DNA of 47,619 nucleotides from a virus (taxonomy: Duplodnaviria > Heunggongvirae > Uroviricota > Caudoviricetes). The translations under genes and the position numbers were made by a program. The stretch spans positions 1 to 47,619 of IMG/VR virus record IMGVR_UViG_2541047828_000005, one strand, 5' to 3'. Position 1 is the first letter of the stretch. Each line of letters begins with the position of its first letter. The notes under the pieces were generated by a model. The model did not search any database, was not told the origin of the DNA, and saw nothing but the letters and a program-made list of their open reading frames with translations. Shown piece by piece: positions 42,402 through 44,945 of the stretch.

Positions 42402-44945
42402 ATGGCACTAACCCTTTTGGCTACAAACAACGCAGAAAGCACGCTGGCTTCTGCTATCAGCGCAACCGACACGTCGCTGATCGTTAGCGCTGGAACTGGT
42501 GCCGAGTTCCCTGATGCTGTGGCAGGCGAGAGCTACTTTAAGCTCACTCTCACCGATGCCGCCACCGGCTCACAGGTTGAGATCGTGAACGTGACAGCCA
42601 AGGCTGGGGACATCTTCACGATTGAGCGTGCACAGGAAGGAACGCTGGCGCGTGCGTGGGCGGCCAACGACATGGTTGCCAACATGATGACGGCGGATAC
42701 GCTGAACATTATCGCTCAATATGCCCAGCAGGCAGCTGCATCAGCAGCACAGGCTGAAGAGTATGCAAATAACGCTTCTGACTACGCACAGAATAAGTTC
42801 ACGTTCTATAAAACTGCCAGTGATCCTGATGGGACCATTGCAGGGCTGGCAGCAACTACTGACGGCCAGTCGTTCTGGGTAGCCCAGGGGCCTGATGCGC
42901 TTTCTGCTGCATGGCAGTATCAAAACAATGCTGGCGTGGCTGTGTTACAGGCTAAGCAGCCAGGTACAGCTGCTGTAACTGGGACAATTCGCGAATTCCC
43001 TACGCTGGCGGCGGCGCAGGCTGATGCAGACGCTGGTAATATTAAGACGGGATCATCATGCTGGATTGCAAACGAGAACTTTATCACCGCTGATGAATAT
43101 ATTAATAACAATGGAGTGCTTGGGAAGACAGGCCGCTCTATTATTTCAAAGGAATATGTTGATCTCTTAATTTCACAGCAAGTGGCTAGGATAATGTCCA
43201 CTGGAGCCTCCACAAACATTAGCGGATATCCTGATACAGCATGGGCATGGGTTGATAAAGAAGGAAAGTCGACAAGTGAAATACTAAGCGACGGAACCAC
43301 GAATCTCGCTGCGTTATTGCTTGGGGACAAATTTGAATTTTTGACAGATGATGGTGGCGGTATTCTATGTCAGTTAAGGGATGAGGATGCCCTTATATTT
43401 AGCATATCTCCATCAGGGGTTGTTACATTCGGCGAGCAAAAGACATGGATTAGTGATGAAACATTTTTTGACGGATATACAAAAGCATGGATGGATGCAG
43501 AAGGTAAAGTTTACAAAGTTGAATATCCGGACGGCTCTATCGAAGATGCTATGTCAGGTTCGAGCAGCGAGGACGCCTCTGAGTTCCCCATGGTTGCTTC
43601 AGTTGATGGGAATATCATTGCGGTGGATGGTAGCAATGTAACGCAGATCACGAACGACACCGGGGTCTCAAATATTGCTCCTGTAGCATTTGCTAAATTT
43701 CTTCGTTTTCTTTCCAACATTAGCGGTAGCTACCTCACTTATAGATCGACTTATGACGGGAATTATCGCGCGCGTGAGTCATTGCGCTACCTTATTCATG
43801 TGATTTTAACCGGGCAGTCTCTTGCTGCTGGCGGCTCAACGCAGGCACAAAGCCCTGTCACGACTTCAGCCCAGGCTGATTACGGCATACTGGCTTTTGG
43901 TACCGGCCCGAAAGTCGATTTTAAGTATGATACTTTGAATGAGTCGCTGCTTGGAACCGTTATCCCATGCCGGGAGAATGTTGGAACGCGGCCTGGTCAG
44001 GAGTCGCCATCAAGCGGTATGGCTTTTAAAATTCATGAGCTTACCGGGAATACTGTGCTGGTTTCCGATGCGTGCTCATCTGGTACTGCAATTGCAGACA
44101 TTTCATCTGGAACAGCGACTTTTACCGGTGCAACGAAAATGATTCAGGCAGCTGTGGCCATGGCTGAAAAGCTGGGTATGCAGTATGTTCCCGTAATGGT
44201 GCTCATCCACGGAAACCAGAATGCGGCCGCAGGGACATCAATATCTAATTATCGTGCCGCAATGGAGACGCTCCGTGCTCAGTACGAGTCTGTCATTAAC
44301 GCTGCAACAGGTAAAAGTCAGTCGCTTCACATGTTTGTCGGCCAGCTATCCAACATAATTCCGTACGGCGGCACCGCCGGCACGACCAAAACCAATAACA
44401 TCGGTATTGCGCAGTACCAGGAAGCCCGTGATAACGCGTTAATCCATCTTGCCAGCGCACAGTATGCCCGACCGTATTCTGACGGGGAGCATCTGACCAG
44501 TGCGGGGTATCGGACTGAAGGCGAGGTTATTGGCTCGGTTGTCGGTGGGTGGCTGAATGACAATACAAAATCCTCGCTTGTGCCGATAGAGTCTGGTGTT
44601 GTGCAGTCAGGAACCACAATCACTATACCAGTGGCTGGTTGTGTTGGTGATCTCGTGATTGACACCGAGAGGGTTACCGATCCAGGCAACTACGGATTTG
44701 TCCTGACCGGGGCCACAATTGCGTCGGTAGCCGTTAGCGGCAGCGGATCAGCAGCAAAAATAGTTATCACCAAGACCGATTCTACCACTGCGACGGCGAT
44801 ATCTTATGCAAGCCAGGGGATTGCCGGACAAAACCCCGGCCCTGTAACTGGTTCGCGCGGGTGTATCAGAGATTCCCAAACAGGGACGTCACTATCCGGC
44901 CTGCCTCTTTATAACGACCTCGCTGTTTTCTCATTTGCGTTATAG
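42402..44945 (+). CDS. Tail fibre/tailspike protein with candidate SGNH/SASA-like esterase domain, 847 aa
   Basis: GGAGGAG SD; N-terminal ~100 aa homologous to second fibre; C-half carries GQS (ILTGQSLAAGG), HGNQN and DGEH blocks. Confidence 0.65.
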   Translation: MALTLLATNNAESTLASAISATDTSLIVSAGTGAEFPDAVAGESYFKLTLTDAATGSQVEIVNVTAKAGDIFTIERAQEGTLARAWAANDMVANMMTADTLNIIAQYAQQAAASAAQAEEYANNASDYAQNKFTFYKTASDPDGTIAGLAATTDGQSFWVAQGPDALSAAWQYQNNAGVAVLQAKQPGTAAVTGTIREFPTLAAAQADADAGNIKTGSSCWIANENFITADEYINNNGVLGKTGRSIISKEYVDLLISQQVARIMSTGASTNISGYPDTAWAWVDKEGKSTSEILSDGTTNLAALLLGDKFEFLTDDGGGILCQLRDEDALIFSISPSGVVTFGEQKTWISDETFFDGYTKAWMDAEGKVYKVEYPDGSIEDAMSGSSSEDASEFPMVASVDGNIIAVDGSNVTQITNDTGVSNIAPVAFAKFLRFLSNISGSYLTYRSTYDGNYRARESLRYLIHVILTGQSLAAGGSTQAQSPVTTSAQADYGILAFGTGPKVDFKYDTLNESLLGTVIPCRENVGTRPGQESPSSGMAFKIHELTGNTVLVSDACSSGTAIADISSGTATFTGATKMIQAAVAMAEKLGMQYVPVMVLIHGNQNAAAGTSISNYRAAMETLRAQYESVINAATGKSQSLHMFVGQLSNIIPYGGTAGTTKTNNIGIAQYQEARDNALIHLASAQYARPYSDGEHLTSAGYRTEGEVIGSVVGGWLNDNTKSSLVPIESGVVQSGTTITIPVAGCVGDLVIDTERVTDPGNYGFVLTGATIASVAVSGSGSAAKIVITKTDSTTATAISYASQGIAGQNPGPVTGSRGCIRDSQTGTSLSGLPLYNDLAVFSFAL

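Follow-up and report, generated by a model that had tools for sequence, protein, structure and literature searches.

The window analyzed here is the complete 47,619-nucleotide stretch of the IMG/VR virus record IMGVR_UViG_2541047828_000005. It is an E. coli/Klebsiella prophage, that of a temperate phage with a contractile tail, and has a host pectinesterase-like gene beside its integration site. The subject of this work is one of its tail proteins, termed fibre 1, which comprises 847 amino acids (aa) and is encoded at 42402-44945 on the plus strand. We found that fibre 1 is probably a modular receptor-binding tail fibre of this phage with a SASA-type esterase at its tip. Both N-terminal homology to a virion fibre and the position of the gene after the baseplate genes place the protein among tail fibres, and PHROG family 4201 'tail fiber protein' matches aa 117-844 (E 1e-84). 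An earlier note, made from the DNA letters alone, had suggested that fibre 1 carries motifs resembling SGNH/sialate-O-acetylesterase blocks. We are highly confident that the distal domain has an SGNH/SASA-type fold, since five independent lines of evidence agree: structure, profile search, conservation, transitive Pfam evidence and a link to an assayed enzyme.

The three esterase-like motifs of the earlier note are present in fibre 1, namely ILTGQSLAAGG (aa 468-478, 43803-43835), IHGNQNAAAG (aa 602-611, 44205-44234) and DGEHLT (aa 694-699, 44481-44498), and they are not chance resemblances: residues in each of them are conserved across 145 diverse relatives, so that they correspond to family blocks I, III and V. 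An AlphaFold2 (AF2) monomer model of aa 440-847, built on 17 homologues, reached a predicted local distance difference test score (pLDDT) of 81.8 and a predicted template modelling (pTM) score of 0.87. In it a three-layer alpha/beta/alpha domain around a central parallel sheet occupies aa ~460-722, and behind this comes a beta-sandwich (aa ~724-847). The SGNH fold looked for at residues ~460-720 was predicted by this model and its Foldseek matches in the Protein Data Bank (PDB). The best PDB match was 9vyh, the tailspike of Cyanopodophage Pan3 (E 2e-17, TM-score 0.69), which aligned with both the esterase domain and the C-terminal beta-sandwich over 459 columns; it differs from fibre 1 in its low identity (16%), its origin in a podovirus of a cyanobacterium and its N-terminal attachment. 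Further matches were the CE20 acetylesterase XAC1771 (7kmm, E 3e-10), the sialic acid esterases of dog (8f9o, E 4e-10) and guinea pig (8f9q, E 2.6e-8), the FI8 deacetylase (9h4u, E 4.5e-7), the CE6 acetylxylan esterase 1zmb (E 3e-6) and the SASA-family protein At4g34215 (2apj, E 7e-6), with the Shigella phage proteins 9d84 and 9d81 and the SFP21A tail fibre 9lna lower in the ranking. In BFVD the best matches were phage proteins, including those of Klebsiella phage KP8 and the adhesion protein of Salmonella phage ViI, and many were named SGNH hydrolase or esterase.

SIAE (8f9o/8f9q), XAC1771, 1zmb and 2apj belong to the SASA/DUF303 branch of SGNH proteins, and both their fold and the order of their blocks match fibre 1. 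The pairing runs through the GQS of block I, SSGT with SGGT, HGNQN with QGESD and DGEHLT with SDNLHLT. These enzymes are nevertheless cellular, non-fibre proteins of 9-16% identity to fibre 1 and have an acidic block III. When a profile of the fibre 1 module (A2) was compared with PDB sequences, 2apj came out on top (E 0.03), and the alignment paired SSGT with SGGT in block II, IHGNQN with YQGESD in block III and DGEHLT with DNLHLT in block V.

An exhaustive profile search was run over 1.84 billion cluster representatives. It recovered 6526 representatives of 50%-identity clusters at E <= 1e-3, 3112 of which were found at E <= 1e-30. A second word-indexed search, with profile A2, yielded only close Klebsiella relatives among the 120 matches listed and added no diversity. 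Conservation was counted in the best 145 representatives of the 50%-identity clusters, aligned to the profile. In block I, G471-Q472-S473 (43812-43820, plus strand), which follows a strand at aa 463-471 in the model, is kept in 142 of 142. In block V (D694..H697, 44481-44492, plus strand), H697 is invariant (145/145) and D694 is retained in 127/145. Outside these two blocks Y688 (145/145), G604 (144/145), Q648 (143/145) and E534 (138/145) are nearly as constant. Block II of the esterase domain (S560-G561-T562), with G561 at its centre, has Gly in 104/145 representatives, Ala or Ser taking its place in most others.

The earlier note had proposed a hidden Markov model (HMM) search for SASA (PF03629) and SGNH (PF13472) as a check; this failed on fibre 1 itself, which matched neither at E <= 1, but remote homologues do reach SASA. 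Two remote relatives score above the Pfam SASA cutoff of 24.8 bits (P0063 with 27.5 and P0241 with 25.5), and 7 of 10 short family members match Pfam SASA weakly. In addition, gp13 of Acinetobacter phage PD-6A3, a tblastn match of fibre 1, is listed with Pfam SASA in a report that also lists SASA domains in Acinetobacter phage fibres (PMC11058221).

SGNH-domain tail fibres are reported to rank with the commonest enzymatic receptor-binding proteins in prophages of Klebsiella, and two of them, 164_08-KL2 and 174_38-KL55, hydrolyse p-nitrophenyl acetate (Otwinowska et al., PLoS Biol 2026, PMC13123978). 164_08-KL2 is a Klebsiella prophage fibre with a Pfam SASA domain and an HHpred match to 8F9O (PMC13123978). 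Like fibre 1, it is a tail fibre of a temperate enterobacterial phage that carries its SASA-type esterase at the C-terminus and lacks a beta-helix depolymerase. The link from fibre 1 to 164_08 runs only through Klebsiella phage vB_Kpn_Chronis, the closest sequenced phage, which is 95.6% identical to the window over 80% of the structural half. Chronis gp23 occupies the fibre 1 slot and is 52% identical to 164_08-KL2; it shares only aa 1 to ~215 with fibre 1, and by hhalign its C-terminus is remotely related to the fibre 1 module (98.9%, E 1.5e-17). Unlike the Chronis/164_08 type, the fibre 1 module represents a separate subfamily with ~20% identity, no visibility to Pfam and an N/N form of block III. 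SGNH receptor-binding proteins in Mydovirus and Przondovirus have been discussed as 'capsule surface remodellers' (bioRxiv 10.64898/2026.05.12.724579), and prophage tailspike esterases have been catalogued (PMC12115436).

On this fold we propose a mechanism. The ~105-aa N-terminal anchor would dock fibre 1 on the baseplate, a ~350-aa shaft would follow, and the distal ~390 aa would form a two-domain unit; the fibre may be a trimer. The predicted catalytic set consists of Ser473 as the nucleophile, His697/Asp694 as the base pair, and Gly561 together with block III as the oxyanion hole. Fibre 1 would bind an O-acetylated surface polysaccharide, either capsule or O-antigen, and hydrolyse its acetyl esters while leaving the chain uncut, and through this deacetylation the virion would be able to pass the glycan layer or become committed to it. 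Fibre 2, the second fibre of the phage, would present a glycine-rich domain on a paralogous anchor for a second ligand. The functional paradigm is gp63.1 of E. coli phage G7C, an O-antigen deacetylase tailspike that removes receptor O-acetyl groups without depolymerising, as cited in PMC13123978. It is described as a classical SGNH tailspike and not of the SASA branch, and it was not named among the 50 best Foldseek PDB matches of fibre 1. We consider it likely that fibre 1 is an active acetyl-esterase on host surface polysaccharide. We infer this activity, because block III is an unusual N/N variant; the role of a receptor-modifying deacetylase, proposed in the earlier note, and the choice of substrate are likewise putative.

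Several observations weigh against such an activity. Block III (H603-G604-N605-Q606-N607, 44208-44222, plus strand) reads HGNQN in fibre 1 versus HGE.D in 131 of the 145 relatives. The N/N form (E605N, D607N) occurs in about 10-13/145 representatives, with Gly604 kept, and the SASA consensus is (Q/H)-G-E-x-D. Block I is GQSL and not the canonical SASA GQSN. Model confidence falls below 50 in two loops, aa 475-480 after Ser473 and aa 689-694 before Asp694. The distal part of fibre 1 had no match in Pfam (E <= 1), NCBIfam (E <= 0.01) or a phmmer search against PDB. The assayed enzyme 164_08 is remote, with ~20% identity by way of Chronis gp23, and its N-terminal part gave no significant alignment with the fibre 1 profile. 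Moreover, the activity of relatives on p-nitrophenyl acetate does not identify a natural target.

An alternative explanation is that the SASA-like domain is catalytically dead or very weak and lectin-like, so that it only binds (acetylated) polysaccharide and fibre 1 acts as an adhesin. The replacement of both acidic residues in block III in a form shared by so few relatives, the Leu in place of Asn in block I, the low pLDDT of the active-site loops and the missing SASA HMM match all speak for it. However, Ser473, His697, Asp694, Gly604, Glu534, Gln648 and Tyr688 are all retained, and the N/N variant, with the pattern IHGN-Q/A-N/D, is fixed in the whole Klebsiella/E. coli/Serratia clade. Because it is fixed across this clade down to 41% identity, the N/N block III looks like a working variant and not decay. 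In classical SGNH enzymes, block III normally has Asn. We regard a purely binding domain as improbable and keep the acetyl-esterase as the preferred reading.

If fibre 1 is an esterase, its target could in principle be something other than a receptor, such as O-acetyl groups of peptidoglycan during penetration or host sialic acids in a NanS-p-like manner, with a role in nutrition or lysis. The structural neighbours do include sialate esterases, and the NanS-p esterases of Stx prophages, members of the SASA family, have the sialic acids of mucin as their target (PMC10462455). On the other side, the domain is fused to a baseplate anchor and a shaft in the fibre slot after baseplate J, the module has recombined onto at least 3 other fibre N-termini and is also found in the virulent Mydovirus VIK251, and the closest solved structure is a virion tailspike. 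A target other than the receptor appears very unlikely, and polysaccharide on the host surface is kept as the probable substrate of fibre 1.

The limits of the fibre 1 gene agree with those of the earlier note, 847 codons from an ATG at 42402, and are borne out by the ribosome binding site and by a terminator inside the longer open reading frame (ORF). A GGAGG (~42392-42396) lies 5 nt upstream of the ATG, a terminator lies inside the extension to the alternative TTG, and fibre 2 likewise starts with MAL.LLA, so the ATG was taken as the real start. The TTG at 42345 (program ORF 42345-44945) was rejected; the extension would cross the terminator hairpin at 42356-42375 and its T-run.

Fibre 1 is evidently built from exchangeable pieces. 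The N-terminal anchor domain (aa 1-105, 42402..42716, plus strand) is paralogous to the start of fibre 2 and homologous to that of PDB 8jov, and it is common to fibre 2, Chronis and RothC/D. The match of aa 8-118 to 8jov_1, a solved phage tail fibre named 'putative tail fiber protein', has an E value of 9e-10. The proximal shaft (aa ~106-214, 42717..43043, plus strand) recurs at 88-95% DNA identity in Chronis gp23, in Pectobacterium phage PEAT2 and in further phages. The middle region (aa ~215-459, 43044..43778, plus strand) is common to Mydovirus VIK251 and to 699-727-aa prophage fibres with other N-termini. The SASA-like SGNH esterase domain (aa ~460-722, 43779..44567, plus strand), defined by the model, Foldseek, motifs and conservation, is always accompanied by the C-terminal beta-sandwich (aa ~723-847, 44568..44942, plus strand), which has near-invariant motifs of its own, DPGNYGF (aa 760-766) and G.RG(C/N)(I/L)RDS (aa 817-825). 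In the 145 relatives the beta-sandwich motifs are conserved like the catalytic blocks, with D754 in 144/145 as well as G765-F766 and R819-G820-(C/N)-(I/L)-R823-D824-S825; they may serve a substrate groove, contacts within a trimer or the docking of a partner.

The stretch from aa ~197/212 to 847 is common to VIK251 and to a 727-aa fibre of the E. coli 20KM2222 prophage (NZ_CP151050.1). The latter is 75% identical overall and about 94% or more from aa 390, with another N-terminus and a YmfQ-type baseplate. In the Klebsiella Mydovirus vB_KpnM_VIK251, gp51 matches fibre 1 aa 212-847 with 64% identity, and the gene after it, gp50, is 70% identical to the 250-aa protein encoded behind fibre 1. VIK251 differs from the window phage in being virulent, 142 kb in size and equipped with a different fibre N-terminus, and its gp51 and gp50 are annotated as hypothetical. 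Hundreds of Klebsiella prophage proteins of 699-808 aa bear the same distal module on other N-termini. In 20KM2222 an acyltransferase gene (Acyl_transf_3, E 4e-15; L008:1735-2826, minus strand) sits immediately upstream of the homologous esterase fibre, in divergent orientation. It could encode a lysogenic-conversion acetylase paired with the deacetylating fibre; no Acyl_transf_3-type gene was seen among the window ORFs scanned.

Fibre 2 is encoded at 46588-47619 on the plus strand (343 aa), and the window ends with its stop codon. The earlier note had claimed that the two fibres share a homologous N-terminus of ~100 aa and differ in their distal parts, and BLASTP confirmed both points. The anchor domain of fibre 2 (aa 1-101, 46588..46890, plus strand) has 58 of 101 residues identical to fibre 1 (57%, E 1e-32), and nothing was alignable by BLASTP beyond residue 101. 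Over the shared 303 nt the DNA identity is 59%, that of third codon positions 30%, and the longest identical run 11 nt. Because of these values, the two N-termini are best described as old paralogues whose similarity has been held by selection on the protein, and a recent duplication or a recombination substrate as the origin of the shared N-termini was rejected. Both proteins are also matched by several PHROG families, of which part are annotated as tail fibre and part have no assigned function. The glycine-rich end of fibre 2 that the earlier note described was also found: with the stop codon the domain covers 47044..47619 (plus strand), and aa 153-340 match Pfam Gly_rich_2 (PF21722) with E 8.5e-14 and 52.5 bits versus a cutoff of 24.3 bits. 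RefSeq names the E. coli homologue of fibre 2 'glycine-rich domain-containing protein'.

The two-fibre layout recurs in Chronis (gp23, gp24, gp25, gp26) and in E. coli prophages. In the latter, the slot of fibre 1 is occupied by a GDSL_2 esterase fibre of the classical kind (RefSeq 'SGNH/GDSL hydrolase family protein'; PF13472, E 2e-10), whereas the DNA of fibre 2 is ~94% identical. This marks the fibre 1 slot as a hot spot at which esterase tips from different SGNH branches are exchanged. The behaviour of fibre 2 is different: it occurs widely in E. coli prophages and is well conserved there, its exact sequence occurring on 631 contigs, and its glycine-rich part has diverged in Chronis (52% identity overall). 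This pattern fits a sharing of tasks in which a variable fibre would modify glycans and the other fibre would be a second adhesin, and dual receptor use by the two fibres, as the earlier note implied, is plausible.

That the shared anchors dock at a single site, and that a virion displays both fibres at once, are further suppositions. Fibres 1 and 2 might instead be rivals for one set of baseplate sites; virions would then be mixed or carry one fibre or the other, and dual specificity would be a property of the population. Homologous anchors of 57% identity would fit one docking partner, and only one candidate docking protein, of 234 aa (40866-41570, plus strand), lies directly after baseplate J. 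Yet the anchors are 43% non-identical with saturated third positions, which could equally mean two distinct sites, and the two-fibre arrangement is conserved in Chronis and the E. coli prophages. We consider competition for shared sites possible but on the doubtful side, and dual receptor use by the two fibres is retained as a plausible reading.

Directly behind fibre 1 lies a gene for a 250-aa protein (44957..45709, plus strand) that is inherited together with the esterase module. The protein is a candidate for an accessory or an assembly factor of the fibre. It had no Pfam or NCBIfam match. Its AF2 model (pLDDT 90.4) is a curved two-sheet beta-sandwich of the concanavalin A (ConA)-like/LamG jelly-roll type, its best Foldseek match is a clostridial neurotoxin receptor-binding fragment (E 1e-7, TM-score 0.5-0.6), and a relative (P0217) is named 'Concanavalin A-like lectin/glucanase superfamily' in UniRef. 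The gene accompanies the module in VIK251 (70% identity), in a Serratia prophage with siphovirus-like tail genes (45% identity) and in E. coli 20KM2222 (inside an 88.5% DNA match), and Chronis gp24 is a remote relative (hhalign 93.5%). A 64-aa ORF (45719..45913, plus strand) moves with the cassette and is 98% identical at the same position in E. coli 20KM2222; it matched no family and was not found in Chronis, with no similarity to gp25. In three more distant loci (L005, L007, L009) a similar-sized gene follows the esterase fibre without detectable sequence similarity to the 250-aa family, and P0066 and the cellular P0065 have no such neighbour gene. One of these loci, a P2-like contig (L009:3001-5900, Logan SRR27197497), has an unusual fibre-gene position, with a 28%-identical esterase fibre and a 251-aa gene between baseplate J and a P2 gpI homologue.

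A tentative and rather unlikely possibility is that the SASA-type fibre tip of enterobacterial phages is no enzyme complete in itself but a three-gene cassette, made up of the esterase tip, the 250-aa ConA-like protein and the 64-aa protein, which would recombine as a unit onto unrelated baseplates. The ConA-like protein would then be a lectin subunit docked on the C-terminal beta-sandwich at DPGNYGF and RG(C/N)(I/L)RDS, supplying glycan specificity to the chemistry of the esterase. The baseplates concerned would, with the same reserve, be those of the contractile-tailed prophage, the Mydovirus, the YmfQ-type prophage and the Serratia prophage with siphovirus-like tail genes. In the searchable literature, no account of a ConA-like partner of this kind was found.

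The remaining features of the window are those of an integrated contractile-tailed phage. The window starts inside the host pectinesterase-like gene (1-1284, minus strand), after which comes a lambda-type integrase (1419-2489, minus strand) that contains an Arm DNA-binding domain. The structural genes on the plus strand include the tail sheath (32036-33430), a tape measure protein with a transglycosylase domain (34505-36388), the baseplate hub (37370-38407) and baseplate J (39446-40864). The baseplate J-like protein contains an inserted domain (aa 275-338) that matches the FCCH domain of ubiquitin-activating enzyme E1 (PF16190, E 4e-14), from which the RefSeq name of its E. coli homologue is taken. 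Between the baseplate genes and fibre 1 lies a secreted LprI-like moron (41614-42306, plus strand) with its own intrinsic terminator (42356..42383, plus strand), consisting of the hairpin and T-run mentioned above, just 5' of the fibre 1 ribosome binding site. The moron product has a weak NCBIfam match to the A1S_1983 putative colistin-resistance family, far under the family cutoff, and a paralogue (30% identity, E 6e-11) in a second LprI-like secreted protein at 4395-5120 on the minus strand. A DDE transposase of an insertion sequence (6334-7302, minus strand) is located in the early region. Between the two fibre genes, 45999-46576 on the plus strand holds an 86-aa ORF (phrog_3893) and an overlapping ORF for a UmuD-like S24 peptidase (phrog_3469, E 2e-46); Chronis lacks both at the equivalent place. 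Counts of promoter-like and terminator-like sites in 41400-47619 were not above those of shuffled sequence.

The exact fibre 1 protein is present in E. coli assemblies. In its 90%-identity cluster, of which 40 of 70 members were read, all 25 named members are labelled 'hypothetical protein', 'Uncharacterised protein' or alike. Our assignment fills this annotation gap: Pfam and NCBIfam miss the domain, yet the family spans more than 6,500 clusters at 50% identity. The earlier note had recognised the domain correctly by its motifs, although standard HMM libraries and public annotations give no hint of it. Fibre 1 belongs to the same broad SASA-like family as the known SGNH/SASA fibres and presumably works as they do, though it lies under the Pfam threshold and has a variant block III. 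Deacetylating tail fibres of temperate enterobacterial phages have already been published, and because the concept is known the gain here is incremental; the least ordinary element is the conserved ConA-like partner cassette. If fibre 1 is a probable polysaccharide O-acetyl esterase, it would bear on the prediction of prophage host range in E. coli and Klebsiella, on the choice and engineering of therapeutic phage receptor-binding proteins, and on what capsule or O-antigen acetylation means for sensitivity to phages and for vaccine epitopes.

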